Part shown: one piece after another, positions 48,004 through 54,384 of the stretch
Numbering within the stretch: position 1 is the stretch's first letter
How the letters are laid out: each line of letters opens with the position of its first letter
Origin: Burkholderiales bacterium
Lineage (GTDB): Bacteria; Pseudomonadota; Gammaproteobacteria; Burkholderiales; JAEUOS01
Reading direction: 5' to 3'
Length of the DNA: 64,000 nt
Assembly: GCA_031362865.1 (NCBI GenBank)
Contig: JANLTH010000033.1
Location: 11,811-75,810, forward strand
Program-made: the position numbers and the translations under genes
Notes under the pieces: model-generated
What the model was told of the DNA's origin: nothing
The model's input: the letters and a program-made list of their open reading frames with translations, nothing else
The model's database searches: none

Positions 48004-48357
48004 TCACGCCGCCGTCACCCGACTCCGCTCTCGCCGCTGCGGGTCGCGCCGCAACCGAATTTCAACGGTCTGCCCCACCGCTACTGCCGCTTTGACCAAG
48101 GTATCCAACTGGATCGACAGGTTGGCCGGGTCAAGCACCCGGTCCAACTGAGAGCGGCTCGTCGCCATCCGAAGCGCCATCGCCGTCTTCGTTAGGCGAT
48201 CAGCTTGCATGGCATCGTCAAGCTGCTCGGTGAGCGCACGCTTCAAGGCGCGCGCTTGCACTTCTTCGTAGATGCCTTCCTCTTTGAGAAACTCATCAAA
48301 ACTGCCACCTGCGCGGGGGTTAATCACATTGGCGCTTGCAGCGTCACGTTTGACCAT
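48004..48357 (-). CDS. HTH (XRE-like) antitoxin of a type II toxin-antitoxin pair
   Basis: The 117-aa product starts 14 nt inside the upstream toxin gene. A C-terminal HTH-like segment is present (LTKTAMALRMATSRSQLDRVLDP). Confidence 0.65.
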   Translation of the reverse strand: MVKRDAASANVINPRAGGSFDEFLKEEGIYEEVQARALKRALTEQLDDAMQADRLTKTAMALRMATSRSQLDRVLDPANLSIQLDTLVKAAVAVGQTVEIRLRRDPQRRERSRVTAA

Positions 48358-48715
48358 TTTTCCACTCCTTAAGGCGTTTTATCGCCAAGTCGATTTCGCG
48401 CGGATCCGTTTTTTGCGTCTTTTTTACAAAAGCGTGCAGCAACACCATTTCAGATCCGTGGACGGTGAATAGCACGCGCGCGATCCGGTTGCCAATCGTA
48501 CTGCGTACTTCCCAAATATCATCGCGCAGATGATCGACGCGGGGTTTGCCGATGGGCCACTTGTACTGAACATAGGCGATGTCTTCACCGACGATCTGTC
48601 GATCCGCTTTATCAAGCGCCATCAGCATCGCGCGAACCGGTTCATTGCCCGCCGTAGTGCGATAGAAAGACGCAAAAAGCCTTTGGAGGTCAACCATCGA
48701 CGAAGTGTACCGCAT
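48344..48715 (-). CDS. Gp49/HigB-type (RelE/ParE superfamily) toxin
   Basis: The sequence is typical of phage-derived Gp49-like toxins (FYRTTAGNEPVR, KWPIGKPRVDHLRDDIWEVRS, RVLFTVHGSEMVLLHAFVKKTQKT). ATG 48697 is an alternative start. Confidence 0.7.
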   Translation of the reverse strand: MRYTSSMVDLQRLFASFYRTTAGNEPVRAMLMALDKADRQIVGEDIAYVQYKWPIGKPRVDHLRDDIWEVRSTIGNRIARVLFTVHGSEMVLLHAFVKKTQKTDPREIDLAIKRLKEWKNGQT

Positions 48716-48730
48716 AAGGTACTAACTTTC

Positions 48731-48755
48731 GCGCAAATGCCGTAGGCATTTGCGC
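48731..48755. promoter_or_regulatory. Perfect 11-3-11 palindrome GCGCAAATGCC-GTA-GGCATTTGCGC; candidate operator
   Basis: Read directly from the sequence. It lies 16 bp upstream of the toxin ATG (48715) and spans the annotated TTG start (48750) of the divergent Crp-family gene. Confidence 0.45.
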
Positions 48756-49451
48756 CACGCACAGGGCTACCGGATTGGTACACTCCAACGAATGCGCCCA
48801 CCCGCTTTGGTCGAACTCGATTACACCGTTATCACCCAGCCGCGGCTGCGCGCCTTGGCGAAGCGCGGCACTGTGCGCCGCTACCGCAAAGACACCGTGG
48901 TCATGGAAGAGGGTGACCGCGGAGACTTGATGCTGATTATGCTGACCGGGCGGCTGCGTGCCTACTCGGCGAGCCAGCATACCGACCGTGAAGTGACCTA
49001 TGGCGTGTATGGTGCAGGTGATCTTGTGGGTGAAATGTCGCTCGACGGCGGCGCGCGCTCTGCCAGTGTGATTACTCTGGAAACCACCGTGTGCAGCATT
49101 GTCACCCGTGAAACCGTGCGCAGCTATATTGCCGAAGAGCCGGAATTCGCCTTCGACCTGATCGCTCGCGTGATCGAGCGCGCCCGCCGCGCCACGCACA
49201 CTGCACGCAGCTTGGCGCTCACCGATGCTTATGGGCGCTTGAGTGAGCTGCTCACCGGGCTGGCGGTGGTGCAGGGTGATGGCACGAAGCTGATCGAAGA
49301 ACGGCTCACCCATCAAGAGATCGCGAACCGGATTGGTTGCAGTCGCGAGATGGTGAGCCGGTTGATGAAGGATTTGGAGGTGGGGGGCTACTTAGCTAGT
49401 ACGGAGGGGCGACGTTGGTGTGTGGTGAAGTCGCTTCCGGCGCGCTGGTAG
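48750..49451 (+). CDS. Crp/Fnr-family transcriptional regulator (cNMP-binding domain + C-terminal HTH); start uncertain
   Basis: The cNMP-binding core is GDLVGEMSLDGGARSASVITLE. The HTH is THQEIANRIGCSREMVSRLMKDLE. Confidence 0.8.
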   Translation: MRHAQGYRIGTLQRMRPPALVELDYTVITQPRLRALAKRGTVRRYRKDTVVMEEGDRGDLMLIMLTGRLRAYSASQHTDREVTYGVYGAGDLVGEMSLDGGARSASVITLETTVCSIVTRETVRSYIAEEPEFAFDLIARVIERARRATHTARSLALTDAYGRLSELLTGLAVVQGDGTKLIEERLTHQEIANRIGCSREMVSRLMKDLEVGGYLASTEGRRWCVVKSLPARW

Positions 49452-49468: not shown

Positions 49469-51439
49469 TCATGGCAGGTTGCCAACTCCTTGCCGGAGCG
49501 GGTCTCCGGGTGTTGGTGCGCTTACCGGTATCGCGTTCTTGAGCACTTCGCGAACTTTAGCCACTGACGTGCTAGCGCCCACGTTTTTAGCGAGCCAACG
49601 TGTCAAGTTCGCGGCAGCCATGCTCGTACCGGCGAGCCGAACCGTGTCGCAACCGAACGTGCCGACTACCCTTAGTCCGTGCAGCGTCTCTGTTTCCTCT
49701 GTCACTGTGGCGACTTCGGGACTACGAGATGCGCGCGCACCTTCGGAGTGAGTTGCCGATGCCGCGTAAATCGAAACCGTAGCGTCCGATTTGCGATACC
49801 CGCCCGCGACGAGCGTGTGCTGTCCGGTTGCGATGCCGCTGATGCTGCCCTGGCGCTTGATATCTGAAGCCGCGGAATCTCCCGGTGGATTGGGCGTGCG
49901 ATCTAGTAGTTCATAGTCCGGGTCTACCAAATAGGATTGACGGCCATAGACGGGGCGGCCCAGCGTGGGATCGTCACGCTCCACCCAAGCATGGACGGGT
50001 GCGGTAAGTGGTGCGCCGCGATTGGTGAGCGTGACCGTCCACACACCGTGTGGCGCGACTTCACCAGCTTGGCTCTGTGTTGGCGCAACCGCGACCAGTA
50101 CCAACCGACCGCCTATGCCGCGGGAGTTTTGTGCGGGTGCGATGACCGCCGCTAGCCCGTTGTTCGTAGTTGGGTCAGCCAAATACCGGGCGGTTTCGAC
50201 GGAGACGGCGGGGCTGCTGCTGATTCCGCCCGGAGGTGTCAGCCCGACAACAACGTCAGCCGAACCGTCTGGCAGCCAGACTTCAAGAAAACTCGGTGTT
50301 CGGTCGTCTGGCAGCACGTGCCAAGCGAGTTGCTTCGTTTCGTCGCGCGCTAAGTCAAACTGCGCGTGCGCGCGATATTCATGGCTATTTCCCGAAGGCA
50401 GCACGAAAAAAAGCGATCCGCGGCGCTCGACCAATTCGTCAATCGCCCGCTCCAAGATCGACGTGCCGTCGTGCGGGCCAGCCATTTTTCCGAAGCTGAG
50501 GTTGATGATGATTTTGGCGAGCGTCCCTCCGCCCGCGCGCGCTCGCGGCACGTCTGTCCGCTGCAGAATATAACGTGCCGCATCCAAAATCTGTGAGGCG
50601 AGCGATCCCCCCGAGGTATCGCTCACACTTCGTCTCGCGAGTTGAACGCCAATCAGTTCCGCCGACTCCGCCTCGTCGCCGAGGCCCTCCGCCGTTCCGA
50701 CCGCAAGCCCTGCGACGGCTGTGCCGTGTGAGGATCGGTTTCGTGTTCCAGGAATCGATATCTTTTCGTAAACTGCCTCCCAGCTACCCAGCGCGACCTG
50801 AAGTCCATTAAGGGTTTTTCCTGCGAAGTCTCTGCCGTAGCCGAATCCTGATGGCTGGTTTTGAAGTCCATCGGTATCCTGTGACCATAGAAAACTGAAT
50901 CGGGTGTGCTTACTCAGATTGAGCAGGGTATCGTGCCCAAATGCAATCGCATCATCGATGACCCCGACTACCACTTTTGAAAATCTTTCGGTCGGCTTGA
51001 TAGGGCCGGGATCAAAAGGAATTTCCTCGCCGCTCGCAATGGGCAAGCCAACCTCGTAAGCCTCGATAGTGTCCGGTTGCCACTGTAGCTTGTATAAAAA
51101 CTCCGTTTTGACGAATGCGGTGCAAAATGTGGTGCCTTTAAGTTCGTGGCTCGGTTTGCGGTAGACCGACGGAACCCGAATCCAGCCCTTCAAGCCAGAG
51201 AGAGGGTTATCGACCCAGTTGGCAAATTGTTCTGCGGTGACACGAAGCGCCAGAATTACTGCGGTTTCCAATGGCACTTGCCCAACATCGCGAAATTTGG
51301 TTTCATCCGCCCAAGCGAGGTAGGGGTCCTGTCGCACCCCGGTCGTTTCGGTCAGCGCCTGCCCCCAATCCACTAGGGAAGGGCCTTTTTTGAGGTCAGG
51401 GCCGCGCCACGCGGGCAGGGGGGCTTTAGTCTTTTTCAT
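49469..51439 (-). CDS. Subtilase (peptidase S8) without signal peptide, with unknown N-terminal domain of about 170 aa
   Basis: Catalytic-triad contexts are VVVGVIDDAIAFGH (Asp), NRSSHGTAVAGLAVG (His) and RLAGTSMAAANL (Ser). ATG 51439 lies 2 nt after the upstream stop. The N-terminus MKKTKAPLPAWRGPDLKKGPS has no hydrophobic core. Confidence 0.75.
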   Translation of the reverse strand: MKKTKAPLPAWRGPDLKKGPSLVDWGQALTETTGVRQDPYLAWADETKFRDVGQVPLETAVILALRVTAEQFANWVDNPLSGLKGWIRVPSVYRKPSHELKGTTFCTAFVKTEFLYKLQWQPDTIEAYEVGLPIASGEEIPFDPGPIKPTERFSKVVVGVIDDAIAFGHDTLLNLSKHTRFSFLWSQDTDGLQNQPSGFGYGRDFAGKTLNGLQVALGSWEAVYEKISIPGTRNRSSHGTAVAGLAVGTAEGLGDEAESAELIGVQLARRSVSDTSGGSLASQILDAARYILQRTDVPRARAGGGTLAKIIINLSFGKMAGPHDGTSILERAIDELVERRGSLFFVLPSGNSHEYRAHAQFDLARDETKQLAWHVLPDDRTPSFLEVWLPDGSADVVVGLTPPGGISSSPAVSVETARYLADPTTNNGLAAVIAPAQNSRGIGGRLVLVAVAPTQSQAGEVAPHGVWTVTLTNRGAPLTAPVHAWVERDDPTLGRPVYGRQSYLVDPDYELLDRTPNPPGDSAASDIKRQGSISGIATGQHTLVAGGYRKSDATVSIYAASATHSEGARASRSPEVATVTEETETLHGLRVVGTFGCDTVRLAGTSMAAANLTRWLAKNVGASTSVAKVREVLKNAIPVSAPTPGDPLRQGVGNLP

Positions 51440-51441
51440 GG

Positions 51442-52557
51442 CTACCACTCCGCTTTCGCTTTTGTCCAGAGCCATTTCAGTGGTGACTCGTTGTAAGGCA
51501 GGGAAGAAGCTGGAGTCGGATTTTGGGCGGGTTGTCCCACAAACTCAAATCCATGCACCAACTGATAGAAGTCCAATTTTGGATCAAGCACTTCAAAACT
51601 ACGGTCCTGCCAGCCAGTCCCTTGACACAGATACTCTACATAGTCCGCTATCGTGGTGCCCAGCATCGCGCCTGCGACACTGTCCATTGGGTAGTGAACA
51701 CCCGCCACCGTTCTGTTGATAGCAATTCGAGAGGCTTGAGTCAACAATTGATCTCGAAGGGACTTGTGCGCAGCGAGACTACGGGAATCGAGCTTTCTAG
51801 GGTAGGACAGCTTGCTAAGAATGCAAGCCGCCACAAATGCTTCGGTCGCATGCCCGCTGGGCAGGCTGCCGTGCTCGGGTGTTGGCACCATCGGCTGAAT
51901 GTTTGGCGAATAGGCAATCGGGCGAGGTACGTCGAGCGCGTGCTTGAAGCGCATTGCGGCAATCGACGCAATGCCAAGGGAAACATCAATAAGCTCGTTA
52001 GTCCAGCGAGTGCGGGTAGGCTGAAGGTTGGCAACCGCGCTCCAAAATGGCGTCTGCGGAATCAACTGAGCCAAGCATTCGCTGGCGCGGTCTTCACGAA
52101 TTTTTGCCCAGCTCTCGACAAGAGCGAATTGTGATTTGCAGTCTGTATTCTTTGGCTTTGTCATGCGAATGATCGGGTGCTTTTGATAGCGGCCTTGGGA
52201 TTTGGGCTTTGGTGCGTCGAGTGAAATATGGGAAAGCGTGGCAACGCGGCTAGCCTTATCGGTTTCGAAGATCATCCGGGACTGCGCTTCGTACAGAAAA
52301 ATATGCTGGCGGATCGCCGGTTCCCAGCCCTTCATCCGCTCAGGGTTATCGAAGTAATCCTTGGGTGAAAGCAGCGCCCCAGCAGGAGTTGCAGGCACTG
52401 TACCCCCCCGACTCTTAATCAGCGCATCCGTCAGCAACGGCACACCAGGCATTCCGCCGCCCCCACCGTTGCCGCCCCCACCCCAGCCCGCCCAGCCAGC
52501 CCATCCTGCCCACCCAGCCCACCCTGCCCAGCCTGCCCAACCCGCCCATCCAGCCAT
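51442..52557 (-). CDS. Soluble PAP2 / vanadium-haloperoxidase-fold protein with N-terminal (AGW)8-Gly-rich tail
   Basis: All three PAP2 motifs are present: KHALDVPRP (Kx6RP), LPSGHA (PSGH) and NRTVAGVHYPMD (S/N-Rx5Hx3D). No TM helix or signal peptide was found. The AAGGAG Shine-Dalgarno sequence lies 6 nt upstream of ATG 52557. Confidence 0.7.
   Translation of the reverse strand: MAGWAGWAGWAGWAGWAGWAGWAGWGGGGNGGGGGMPGVPLLTDALIKSRGGTVPATPAGALLSPKDYFDNPERMKGWEPAIRQHIFLYEAQSRMIFETDKASRVATLSHISLDAPKPKSQGRYQKHPIIRMTKPKNTDCKSQFALVESWAKIREDRASECLAQLIPQTPFWSAVANLQPTRTRWTNELIDVSLGIASIAAMRFKHALDVPRPIAYSPNIQPMVPTPEHGSLPSGHATEAFVAACILSKLSYPRKLDSRSLAAHKSLRDQLLTQASRIAINRTVAGVHYPMDSVAGAMLGTTIADYVEYLCQGTGWQDRSFEVLDPKLDFYQLVHGFEFVGQPAQNPTPASSLPYNESPLKWLWTKAKAEW
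52453..52554 (-). repeat. Coding low-complexity repeat: eight consecutive Ala-Gly-Trp triplets followed by GGGGNGGGGG
   Basis: The decoded codons are GCT GGA TGG / GCG GGT TGG / GCA GGC TGG / GCA GGG TGG / GCT GGG TGG / GCA GGA TGG / GCT GGC TGG / GCG GGC TGG. The period is 9 nt with varied synonymous codons. Confidence 0.9.
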
Positions 52558-52593: not shown

Positions 52594-54384
52594 CTACTTG
52601 CGTGGTATTCCAGCTGCCAAAAATGCGTCTGCGAAGCGCTGGGCAATGCCGAAGGCCTTGCCGGGCGTATTTTCCAAGAACGAGGACACCGTAAACCCAG
52701 GAACGAATTCGAGTACGCGCTTCGCAAACTCGCTTGCCTGCGGAATCTGGCCGTGCAGCGCATGCGCCAGTGTCAAAGTCCGATAAGTTGACACGTGGTT
52801 GCGGTTGGCTTTGAGTGAGCGGTCGCCCAGCTCGATGGCGCGCTCGTACTTGCCCGCCGTGAGGGCAGCGGAAGCCGCGAGTGCGTCATAGAAGTAGCGC
52901 AGCGGGTCCAGTGGCGAGAGTTGCAGCGCGCGCTCGGTTGCCTCGGTTGCCTCAGCCCCGTGGTCGGAAAAAGCATGCGTAGTGCCCAGAAAGAGCCAAG
53001 CCAGCGACTCGTTCGGGTTGGCCGCAAGAGCGGCTTCGTGGCGCGCCTTGGCCTTGTCCATGTCGCGCATCAAATTGCTTTGCACCAGGCCGTCGATGGT
53101 CAGTGCAAGGGAGCAATCGGCATCGAGGTCGAGCGCGCGGTGCGTCAAATCTTGCGCGTAGGCGGTTTGCCGCTTGGGGTCATCTGCCCAGCCTTGGGTA
53201 ACAAAGAGTACATACCACTTGGCAAGCCAGGCGTAGGGAGTGGGCAGCCGTTTGTGCCGCTCAGTCAGGTGATCGAGCAGGGCGCGTGAGCGTTCAAAGT
53301 CCGTGCGGCTGGTGCGGTGCATCAAGTTGATGCCGCCCAACAGCAGCGAGTAGCTGTCGAGTGTTGGCAGCGGTTTGGTTTTCGCCGCCTTCACTTCGTG
53401 GTCAAGAATGTGGCGATGCGCTTTTGCGGCGATGATGCCGCAGGTCTCGCTCTCGAGTTGGAGCAAGTCGTCCACCGACGTGCTGGTGCGCTCCACCCAC
53501 ACCACTTCATTGCTGCGCAACTCGGAAAGCTCAGCTGATACCAATACGCGGCCTCCGGTGACCACATAACTCCCGCTAAGCGCGTAGTTTGCGCCGAGCC
53601 GCGAATCCACCTCGCCGGCGCTAGAAGGTCGATCACGAAAACCGGTGGTCGAGAGCCGTGAAATCACCCGCAGATCGTGGCTGCGCGCCAGCTTGTCAAT
53701 TATTCCGTCCGCGATCAGGTCACCCACAGCAAGTGTTTCCCGATCCGCCTGCCGCGATGCAAACGGGATGACTGCTATAGTTGGCGCGAGCGCAGCAGCG
53801 GCACGTTCGTGCGCTGGAACAATCGGGAACTTGCCAACCGCCCCCACCCGGTAACTGCGCACTGGCTCCGCGAAATGCTTGACGAAACACTCCCCCAAAT
53901 CCTCAATATCCGCATCCAAATCCGCCGTCAGCGCATCGCGCACCTCCGGCGACACCACAATTTCATGCGGGCCGGCCAGGGTCATCAGGCGCGCGGCAAG
54001 GTTGACCCCTTTACCGTACATGTCATGCGCATCCGCCACTACTGTGGTGGTGTGCGCGCCCACGCGCAGCGCGAGCGGTTCCGCGCTTGCAAACTTTGCG
54101 TTCTCGTCTTGCATCATCGCCTGCAATCCAAGCGCGGCCTGCACGGCTGGGCGGGCACTGGCGAATTCGAGCATCACGCCGTCTCCGGTGCTTTTGACCA
54201 AGCGACCGCCGTGCGCGGGCAACAGTTCGTCCTCGATGCGTGCCACCAGTTGCAGCCAGCGTTGAATCGTTTGGTCTTCATGTTCCTCCATCAACCGCAC
54301 CGACTCAACCAAGTCGGCAAACACGATGGTTTTGACCGGGCGCGTAGCACCGTGGAGCCAATCATCTATGGCGGTAGAAGGCAT
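52594..54384 (-). CDS. Class III adenylate/guanylate cyclase with C-terminal TPR-like helical-repeat region
   Basis: Cyclase motifs are TIVFADLVESV, LVKSTGDGVMLEF and YGKGVNLAARL. A middle beta-rich domain follows (IAVIPFASRQ..), then TPR-like repeats to the C-terminus. ATG 54384 is preferred. The ORF extends to a GTG at 54462, adding 26 low-complexity codons. Confidence 0.8.
   Translation of the reverse strand: MPSTAIDDWLHGATRPVKTIVFADLVESVRLMEEHEDQTIQRWLQLVARIEDELLPAHGGRLVKSTGDGVMLEFASARPAVQAALGLQAMMQDENAKFASAEPLALRVGAHTTTVVADAHDMYGKGVNLAARLMTLAGPHEIVVSPEVRDALTADLDADIEDLGECFVKHFAEPVRSYRVGAVGKFPIVPAHERAAAALAPTIAVIPFASRQADRETLAVGDLIADGIIDKLARSHDLRVISRLSTTGFRDRPSSAGEVDSRLGANYALSGSYVVTGGRVLVSAELSELRSNEVVWVERTSTSVDDLLQLESETCGIIAAKAHRHILDHEVKAAKTKPLPTLDSYSLLLGGINLMHRTSRTDFERSRALLDHLTERHKRLPTPYAWLAKWYVLFVTQGWADDPKRQTAYAQDLTHRALDLDADCSLALTIDGLVQSNLMRDMDKAKARHEAALAANPNESLAWLFLGTTHAFSDHGAEATEATERALQLSPLDPLRYFYDALAASAALTAGKYERAIELGDRSLKANRNHVSTYRTLTLAHALHGQIPQASEFAKRVLEFVPGFTVSSFLENTPGKAFGIAQRFADAFLAAGIPRK

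Follow-up and report, generated by a model that had tools for sequence, protein, structure and literature searches.

A pure N-terminal tri- or tetrapeptide array on a PAP2-type phosphatase is the signature of an undescribed three-gene module of alpha- and beta-proteobacteria

The array tail and its host gene

Direct reading of a 64,000-nucleotide stretch of a Burkholderiales bacterium (contig JANLTH010000033.1; the whole stretch is called the window below) showed a minus-strand open reading frame (ORF) for a PAP2-like phosphatase of 371 amino acids, the N-terminus of which is M-(AGW)8-GGGGNGGGGG-M. The gene is the middle member of a three-gene cassette, in the order TPR regulator (with a cyclase or SARP output), array-bearing PAP2 protein and Csp-like S8 protease. 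The positions of the features are given in Table 1.

The coding DNA begins with ATG and continues through eight units of one Ala, one Gly and one Trp codon. The Ala codons run GCT/GCG/GCA/GCA/GCT/GCA/GCT/GCG, the Gly codons run GGA/GGT/GGC/GGG/GGG/GGA/GGC/GGC and the Trp codon is TGG throughout. The linker is then encoded by GGT/GGG/GGC/GGC/AAC/GGT/GGG/GGC/GGC/GGA, after which the next ATG stands. An earlier note, made from the letters alone, had set out both codon series and had described the repeat as perfect in the peptide and imperfect in the DNA. Both statements were exact base for base, and all of the units (8/8) are distinct at the DNA level. The same note had placed the Shine-Dalgarno sequence, with its 6-nt spacer, before Met1 and not before the internal Met, and reading of the sequence agreed. 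Tandem Repeats Finder reported a 9-bp period with 84% matching and nothing tighter. At least 10 differences from the consensus unit were counted, and all of them fell within the 16 four-fold sites among the 72 bases (P = (16/72)^10 = 3e-7); chance is excluded as the origin of the repeat. The pure repeat is given by one reading frame only, the alternative frame over the same DNA being non-repetitive. In the AlphaFold2 model the predicted local distance difference test (pLDDT) score of residues 1-35 was below 50.

A run of tracts of three or more G (GGGCGGGTTGGGCAGGCTGGGCAGGGTGGG..., 52453-52547) was observed on the coding (minus) strand, and a G-quadruplex in the DNA or mRNA after the start codon is possible. 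The run is not a family trait, many orthologous arrays not being G-rich.

The host protein gave a Pfam match to PAP2 (PF01569, residues 193-304, E = 5e-14). The catalytic motifs K205-x6-R212-P213, P233-S-G235-H236 and N281-R282-x5-H288-x3-D292 are intact and were invariant across 57 sequences. Its AlphaFold2 model (pLDDT 85) has a confident core from about residue 40, and the best Foldseek matches of the model were the acid phosphatases 7f17/7f18, 8yc1 and 1d2t, which share a helical-bundle fold. No transmembrane segment was predicted (maximum KD19 1.06). By its motifs and its modelled fold, the protein belongs to the PAP2/class-A acid phosphatase superfamily. Its best database homologues were at most 46% identical, and many of them open with repeats of SGW, GAF, GAM, GGV, AGI or AAF.

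At the extreme C-terminus of the PAP2 protein (residues 359-371, window positions 51442-51475) the pattern L-x-W-L-W-x-x-A-x-x-E-W is conserved, frequently as the very end of the polypeptide. Within it E370 never varies, and W364, A367 and W371 hardly do. C-terminal peptides are common ligands of TPR domains, so the TPR partner could dock at this conserved end.

Table 1. Features of the array-PAP2 cassette in the window and halogenase genes at related loci
Feature	Position	Strand	Basis or remarks
Soluble PAP2/class-A acid-phosphatase-like gene, whole, 371 aa	51442..52557	-	Pfam, alignment, AlphaFold2, Foldseek
Shine-Dalgarno AAGGAG, 6-nt spacer to start codon	52564..52569	-	Direct sequence reading
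ATG start codon (Met1) of PAP2-like gene	52555..52557	-	Direct reading; same start from gene caller on identical Logan contig
(Ala-Gly-Trp)x8 array, residues 2-25	52483..52554	-	Eight distinct 9-bp units; disordered in AlphaFold2
Gly-rich linker GGGGNGGGGG, residues 26-35, array to folded core	52453..52482	-	Sequence, AlphaFold2
Internal Met36	52450..52452	-	Not conserved as start; core helix about 5 residues further on (PLLTDALIKSRGG)
Csp-like S8 subtilase, co-transcribed	49469..51475	-	656-aa form from 51439 (2 nt past PAP2 stop); longest ORF from 51475
Class-III nucleotide cyclase + TPR protein	52594..54462	-	Stop 36 nt before PAP2 start; gene-caller start 54384
Crp-family cNMP-binding (cyclic nucleotide monophosphate) transcription factor, divergent	48750..49451	+	Pfam; recurs in 26 loci, mostly beta-proteobacteria
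LuxR/GerE-type regulator, divergent	54567..55328	+	Pfam; recurs with cassette in 22 loci, beta-proteobacteria
Halogenase gene, L002	10935-12455
Halogenase gene, L003	10789-12282
Halogenase gene, L041	1518-3020
Halogenase gene, L085	13687-15270	-

Arrays across the family

A total of 80 genomic loci from alpha- and beta-proteobacteria and one Myxococcota were fetched and the frame upstream of the conserved core was read. An in-frame N-terminal array of 3 to 18 copies followed the ATG in every locus with an intact 5' end (90-odd). The family comprised 1041 representatives of 50%-identity clusters at E<=1e-30. The non-redundant set contained 70 arrays with 703 units and a median of 10 copies, 60 of the arrays being built of tripeptides and 10 of tetrapeptides.

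The tripeptide units were GGF, GGV, GGL, GGI, GGY, SGI, SGL, TGL, SGV, SGY, SGF, GTM, AGL, AGM, NAL, NSY, SSY, NSF, SSL, GAY, AGY, YAG, GAV, NGI and EGF, together with the His-bearing SGH and KGH, the Ala-type SGA, GGA, GAA and TGA, and the odd units QRA and NDA. The tetrapeptide units were GGGL, SGGI, SGGA, SGGL, SGGM, SGGV, GGGM and GGGF. The feature residue of the 70 arrays was F in 12, L in 12, A in 11, V in 10, Y in 9, I in 6, M in 5, W in 3 and H in 2. The conserved trait is not Trp but the purity of an array whose unit combines two or three small or polar residues with a single feature residue. The earlier note had thought of membrane-interface insertion and of GW/WG-type docking; these Trp-centred readings were not supported, the Trp being replaced by F, Y, L, I, V, M, H or A and serving as the feature residue in only 3/70 arrays, in a family with period 4 as well as period 3. 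A conserved Trp, such as a GW/WG Argonaute-docking motif or a Trp membrane anchor would have, failed to appear across the 70 arrays. A collagen or polyproline-II repeat was rejected on the arrays of period 4 (10/70) and on the Gly-free units NSY, SSY, SSL, NAL, NSF and NDA.

In beta-proteobacteria the array usually runs from residue 2, and in alpha-proteobacteria it is preceded by a short leader whose last residues are a conserved GPE. Both are succeeded by a G/A/S-rich linker and then by [S/N]P[L/M], at the onset of the first core helix. Counted from just after Met1 (beta-) or GPE (alpha-proteobacteria), the units read naturally as x-x-phi.

Unit type turns over fast and wholesale between relatives. 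Whole-unit switches were found between GGY and GGV at 94% core identity, between AGL and SGF at 90.5%, and between SGL and SGF at 89.6%, and the genus Microvirga alone holds GGL, GGV and GGI arrays.

Gene callers often begin the gene after the array, which hides the feature. All three (3/3) of the annotations that seemed tail-less (Ramlibacter, Alsobacter and a metagenome-assembled genome (MAG)) had an in-frame array upstream of the annotated internal start, and the same was seen in Tateyamaria when the annotation (P0064) was set against the DNA (L058). The internal starts were ATG, GTG or TTG just past the array, in L058 (Tateyamaria sp. ANG-S1, 7884-8000), L087 (3800-4000), L088 (3750-4000) and L089 (3760-4000), and the arrays so hidden were (SSY)7, SGW/(GGW)5, (GGA)n and (GGV)15. 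Examples of mis-started proteins are P0064 ('MLTEALI...') and P0019 ('MADALIL...'). Uniform starting of the orthologues at the internal Met with no frame upstream, which the earlier note had named as the outcome that would overturn its reading, was thus not what the comparison gave; the array was always present upstream of annotated internal starts. Annotation error is probably the reason that the feature went unnoticed. Two side observations concern the same region of other genomes. In L089 a spurious ORF was called on the opposite strand across the array, and in L014 (Polaromonas MAG, 7809-7990) a run of N lies within the array region, a gap which suggests that arrays are able to break short-read assemblies.

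Selection on the peptide and decay of the DNA repeat

A large proportion (98.2%) of the 703 units were identical to the unit of their own array. At four-fold sites 697/1392 positions (50.1%) departed from the array consensus, while at non-degenerate sites 34/3604 (0.94%) did so. The array frame was open in all orthologues, with variation that was synonymous only. In two Microvirga species with 88.5% identical cores (L050 and L070) the arrays align unit by unit with synonymous differences only, L070 having one unit more. The contrast between synonymous and non-degenerate divergence proves that the array is translated in its frame and that the peptide is under very strong purifying selection. 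The proposals that selection acts on the peptide, rather than recent slippage having produced the repeat, and that the tail is translated, which had been made from the single window, therefore hold family-wide.

Synonymous sites within the arrays were close to saturation, and codons were used more evenly there than elsewhere in the gene. Codon entropy was higher in the arrays than in the core of the same genes for Gly (1.92 vs 1.80), Ala (1.97 vs 1.86) and Val (1.94 vs 1.80). The same codon in adjacent units at a given position was rarer than in position-wise shuffles (581 observed vs 671 +/- 15; L006-L084). A minority of arrays appear young, being homogeneous in their DNA or carrying multi-unit duplications of 18-45 bp (L004, L010, L016, L039, L048, L059 and L067); such higher-order duplications were visible in L016 and L048. 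Arrays were identical in the near-identical strain pairs L003/L005 and L023/L028. From these patterns we infer block duplication as the source of new arrays and of their remodelling, followed by decay at synonymous sites only. The scrambled codon use removes long exact DNA repeats, and the arrays may have been selected to lose them.

An explanation at the level of DNA or RNA would make the feature a 9-bp microsatellite or contingency locus, a G-quadruplex, or an untranslated leader with the true start at Met36. In its favour, the coding strand of the window array is rich in G and shows an extended pattern of G3+ runs, a 9-bp period is detected, and several databases annotate orthologues from an internal start. 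Against this stand units that are multiples of 3 nt and heterogeneous in DNA, identical arrays in near-identical strains, many orthologous arrays that are not G-rich (NSY, SSL, NAL, NDA), and the proof of translation given above; the window RNA gave no Rfam match and folded no better than shuffles (z = +0.65). This explanation, or a wrong start, is already largely refuted, and it is given hardly any credence. Contingency loci with 5' intragenic repeats, such as Haemophilus lic1A (CAAT), are perfect in the DNA and have a unit that is not a multiple of 3, by which they switch frame. They resemble the present arrays in having a tandem repeat directly after the start codon, but the units here are of 9 or 12 nt, codon-scrambled and stable in length. 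A phase-variable locus was accordingly rejected, the units being mostly all different in DNA and the arrays of L003/L005 and L023/L028 identical.

A device acting in translation was also considered, by which a 5' run of 8-18 codons for one amino acid plus Gly would tie expression of PAP2 and the coupled S8 gene to charged-tRNA supply or to nascent-chain stalling, as in attenuation leader peptides. The arrays lie at the extreme 5' end, their feature residues include the W, F, H, L, I and V of classic leader peptides, and the distance from PAP2 stop to S8 start is 2 nt; all synonymous codons are used. Close relatives would however sense different amino acids (GGY vs GGV at 94% identity), units of Ala, Ser and Gly are unlikely sensors, and the link to halogenases described below would go unexplained, so that the device is very improbable.

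The three-gene cassette

A TPR protein was found upstream of PAP2 in 75/78 loci and the S8 protease downstream in 77/78, the exceptions being contig ends. A reciprocal search from S8 homologues returned the same triad, with the arrays (GGY)12 and (GGA)6. No matching repeat was found on neighbouring proteins; in every locus the repeat stands only at the 5' end of PAP2, and the other matches were alternative frames of the same DNA. No terminator-like site was found between the cassette genes on the coding strand. In the three operon proteins of the window neither a signal peptide nor a transmembrane segment was predicted, and by these predictions all three look cytosolic.

The catalytic residues D162, H238, N351 (oxyanion) and S606 of the S8 protein were invariant in 65 sequences. 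Its AlphaFold2 model (pLDDT 88) has a beta-rich segment between N351 and S606. The top Foldseek matches were CspC, CspA and CspB (E 1e-21 to 1e-23, TM up to 0.76), the remaining subtilases standing at 5e-10 or worse, and the alignments covered about 650 columns for CspC (6mw4) and about 520 for CspB (4i0w). Matches at the level of sequence were 9sj6 and 4i0w. The protein is thus predicted, from its intact triad and its model, to be a Csp-type subtilase with a prodomain and a jelly-roll-type insert in the core. The link that the earlier note drew between the tail and the co-transcribed subtilase is plausible, given a protease in 77/78 loci with the fold of Csp-like zymogen activators.

The regulatory parts are modular. 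The TPR protein of L085 (7341-9920) has a SARP-type Trans_reg_C+BTAD N-terminus in place of the cyclase and keeps its TPR part, and in L091 (491-1627) a single protein combines the cNMP-binding and GerE domains. The Crp-family factor of the window is likely the reader of the cyclase output.

The place of the TPR protein allows for a tethered multivalent ligand, in which the uncut array would bind the TPR grooves of at least two cyclase-TPR molecules and join their class-III cyclase domains, with the protease trimming the array to tune or end signalling. Class-III cyclase domains are active only as dimers, and TPR domains are established binders of extended peptides. The order from TPR protein to array protein is strictly syntenic, identical units would maximise avidity, and the TPR part persists whether the output domain is a cyclase or a SARP. 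Set against these points, no TPR column clearly covaries with unit type, and the SARP-type variant has no obvious need of dimerisation by a ligand; the proposal is judged improbable.

Two further candidates were rejected. An amyloid signalling pair of the NLR-associated kind (HET-s/BASS type) was dropped for lack of a matching motif on the adjacent sensor protein, and a known defence system was dropped on the PADLOC search, which gave only generic matches to cyclase and cNMP domains. Plasmid origin was likewise rejected, megablast returning no match.

Pairwise identities of the cassette genes were discordant between some loci. In L016 vs L037 they were 92% for PAP2, 72% for TPR-cyclase and 90% for S8, and in L015 vs L046 they were 74.5%, 87% and 68%, respectively; L010/L051 are likewise among the discordant pairs. 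Such discordance points to recombination in the cassette or to rates that differ within it.

Trp-type arrays and halogenases

A flavin-dependent Trp-halogenase (PF04820, E 1e-109 to 1e-135) was found inside or beside the cassette in L002, L003/L005, L041 and L085/L086, where the arrays are of SGW or GGW. The halogenase adjoins 4/8 Trp-type arrays and 0/~80 others (hypergeometric estimate ~3e-5, with 8 Trp-type arrays among ~88 loci that are not independent). At least two separate lineages bear it, and their halogenases are only 31% identical between them. No other tailoring or transport gene tied to particular unit types recurred across the loci.

The closest solved relative of these halogenases was Xcc4156 (E 8e-70). 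Xcc4156 does not halogenate free Trp, and its open site 'might accept ... even peptides' (PMC7336383); BrvH has no known native substrate (PMC7754283). The confinement of the halogenases to Trp-type arrays, together with this open-site relative, suggests that the Trp side chains of the array are enzymatic substrates and that the array behaves as a peptide competent for tailoring.

Proposed function of the array

The reading that we tentatively prefer, at somewhat less than an even chance, is by analogy with zymogen activation and holds the array to be a pro-segment and dedicated substrate of the co-encoded protease, possibly releasing identical tri- or tetrapeptides. The tail would be accessible to the protease because it is predicted to be disordered. 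The Csp-like protease would cut after the feature residue of each unit, which would free the phosphatase of its tail and yield many identical peptides. In Trp-type cassettes a neighbouring open-site flavin halogenase may modify the peptides first. In a more speculative and unlikely extension, the released peptides, or the tethered array itself, would be read by the TPR domain with a cAMP/Crp or SARP output, and unit switching would give private channels without cross-talk.

In its fullest form the proposal describes a cytoplasmic generator of peptide signals. Such a generator would supply 8-18 identical peptides, brominated or chlorinated in the Trp-type, to the TPR domain of the cyclase or SARP regulator for a cAMP/Crp response; unit switching would create orthogonal private channels like pherotypes, and codon scrambling would be selected for genetic stability. 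Taken as a whole this scheme is unlikely.

Several findings weigh against the cutting of the array and the signalling built on it. No exporter or importer was conserved in the neighbourhood among the loci compared, leaving an extracellular signal unsupported, and no halogenase was found anywhere within the 64 kb of the window. Alignment columns of S8, TPR-cyclase and the PAP2 core did not covary convincingly with the kind of feature residue; the top mutual information, uncorrected for phylogeny, was barely at or above the permutation null. Pairwise identities gave no clear contrast between same-unit and different-unit pairs, and identities were mosaic among the three cassette genes. Peptides of Ala-type units (GGA, SGA, GAA) would be too plain for specific ligands. 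A pure precursor model leaves the conserved, apparently active PAP2 domain without a role, and unit purity could equally mean homotypic packing or avidity and not identity of the product.

Two detailed versions of the cutting were tried and set aside. The idea that a period of 3 places a hydrophobic residue in both the S1 and the S4 pocket of a subtilisin (P1/P4) was weakened by the tetrapeptide arrays (10/70). A tripeptidyl-peptidase was rejected on the S8 fold, which is Csp-like and not TPPII-like, and on the alpha-proteobacterial leaders, which are not multiples of three residues.

A tail that is never removed is the other broad possibility, and a fairly unlikely one. As a sticker-spacer or self-association element, which was the main idea of the earlier note, it would form a condensate, a silk- or amyloid-like stack or an oligomer, or would serve localisation, with the protease as an off-switch or acting on another substrate. 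Its composition mirrors the low-complexity assemblers FUS ([G/S]Y[G/S]), FG repeats and the GGX of silk and abductin, the Ala-type arrays resemble silk-like GA/GGA, the tail is predicted to be disordered, periods of 3 and 4 are both tolerated as fits a polymer insensitive to spacing, and unit purity could reflect homotypic ladders. The obligate protease and TPR regulator and the halogenase beside Trp arrays are nevertheless unexplained by it, the polar units NDA, QRA and KGH are poor stickers, and very fast unit switching is not required. Low-complexity repeats in general, among them those of FUS, FG nucleoporins, spider silk and abductin and the GGA/GGN of mycobacterial PE_PGRS proteins, share with the arrays a spacer of Gly, Ser or Ala with one aromatic or aliphatic residue every 3-4 positions and a predicted disorder. 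Theirs are degenerate and long, whereas the arrays here are short, 98% pure and N-terminal on an enzyme, with a unit that switches wholesale between close relatives.

Comparison with known systems

The preferred reading, a pro-segment cut by the co-encoded protease, was compared with the clostridial Csp system, in which CspB removes the N-terminal pro-region of the zymogen pro-SleC and so activates it. The S8 partner shares with the Csp proteins (CspB/pro-SleC, CspA/CspC) a prodomain and a subtilase core in which a beta-rich insert separates the oxyanion Asn from the catalytic Ser, and activation of a zymogen by removal of an N-terminal pro-region is the logic proposed here. The two differ in that sequence identity is only 13-16%, the cassette is carried by alpha- and beta-proteobacteria that do not sporulate, a PAP2 enzyme bearing a pure array takes the place of a cortex hydrolase as the presumed substrate, and the cassette appears cytosolic and linked to cAMP signalling.

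Multi-copy precursors cut by subtilisin-like proteases include yeast alpha-factor, fungal Kex2-processed repeat proteins, the thyrotropin-releasing hormone precursor and the multi-core precursors of cyanobactins. As in those, many identical short units lie in one translated precursor with a dedicated subtilase alongside, codons vary among units of conserved peptide, and tailoring enzymes are possible (here the halogenase subset). Identical repeated units with an adjacent S8 protease (77/78 loci), as expected of a multi-core precursor, were found. The export expected of pheromones and of multi-core ribosomally synthesised and post-translationally modified peptides was not: a signal peptide, a transmembrane segment and a conserved transporter were all sought and not found. 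The known precursors are moreover secreted, and recognition or spacer sequences lie between their units, while the units here are of 3-4 residues, directly abutting and fused to the N-terminus of a catalytically intact enzyme.

In RRNPP quorum sensing (Rap/NprR/PlcR/PrgX), known from Firmicutes, TPR receptors bind oligopeptides. The cassette is similar in that a TPR regulator adjoins a source of short peptides, and the rapid diversification of the peptide resembles pherotypes. The RRNPP pro-peptides are small, separate, secreted ORFs re-imported by Opp, which were not found here, and the receptors have helix-turn-helix or phosphatase outputs, whereas the N-terminus here is a cyclase or SARP. 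Membership of the RRNPP family was rejected, since any peptide would come from the N-terminal end of a 371-aa enzyme without a secretion signal and the TPR protein has a cyclase or SARP part.

A precedent for an enzyme-fused precursor is the borosin-type OphMA, whose peptide substrate lies within the same polypeptide as the folded enzyme and is later excised by a protease. Unlike the array, its core is C-terminal, lacks tandem repetition and is the substrate of the methyltransferase domain of OphMA itself; of modification of the array by PAP2 there is no sign here. Only the component domains of the cassette (PAP2, Csp-like S8 and class-III cyclase/TPR) are members of known families.

Novelty and significance

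Literature and full-text searches for the repeat strings and for the combination of PAP2, subtilase, cyclase and TPR returned nothing relevant, and neither the tail nor the cassette is covered by a model in Pfam, NCBIfam or PADLOC. The statement of the earlier note that no characterised domain carries this repeat was borne out by these searches. The array tail is the signature of an undescribed, widespread three-gene module of alpha- and beta-proteobacteria, with about 1000 clusters at 50% identity. The mechanism is one that we infer; the arrays evolve in an unusual way that can be tested directly, staying pure without being identical in their DNA and exchanging their unit wholesale.

If confirmed, the array would be a new protein feature in which purity is held by selection while the DNA is non-repetitive and the unit flips between near relatives, which is hard to accommodate under standard models of repeat evolution. 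It would offer a clean natural system for the study of selection on low-complexity sequence and of codon choice within repeats, and the module would link proteolysis, a phosphatase and cAMP signalling. The peptidyl-Trp of SGW and GGW arrays would become a candidate substrate for open-site 'tryptophan halogenases' of the Xcc4156/BrvH type, which have no known native substrates. The beginning of genes after the array would amount to a systematic annotation error.

Other features of the window

On the minus strand at 55826-56515 lies a gene for a 229-aa protein that appears to have a signal peptide (MKSTALSCFTALLALVSAPAFAQA) and contains low-complexity stretches rich in Gly and Ser; no Pfam match to it is on record, and it is unrelated to the cassette. 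Beyond the Crp gene, also on the minus strand (48004-48715), a toxin-antitoxin-like pair was observed, consisting of a Gp49/HigB-like ORF of 123 aa followed by an ORF of 117 aa. A PIN/MazE pair stands at the same relative position in L004.

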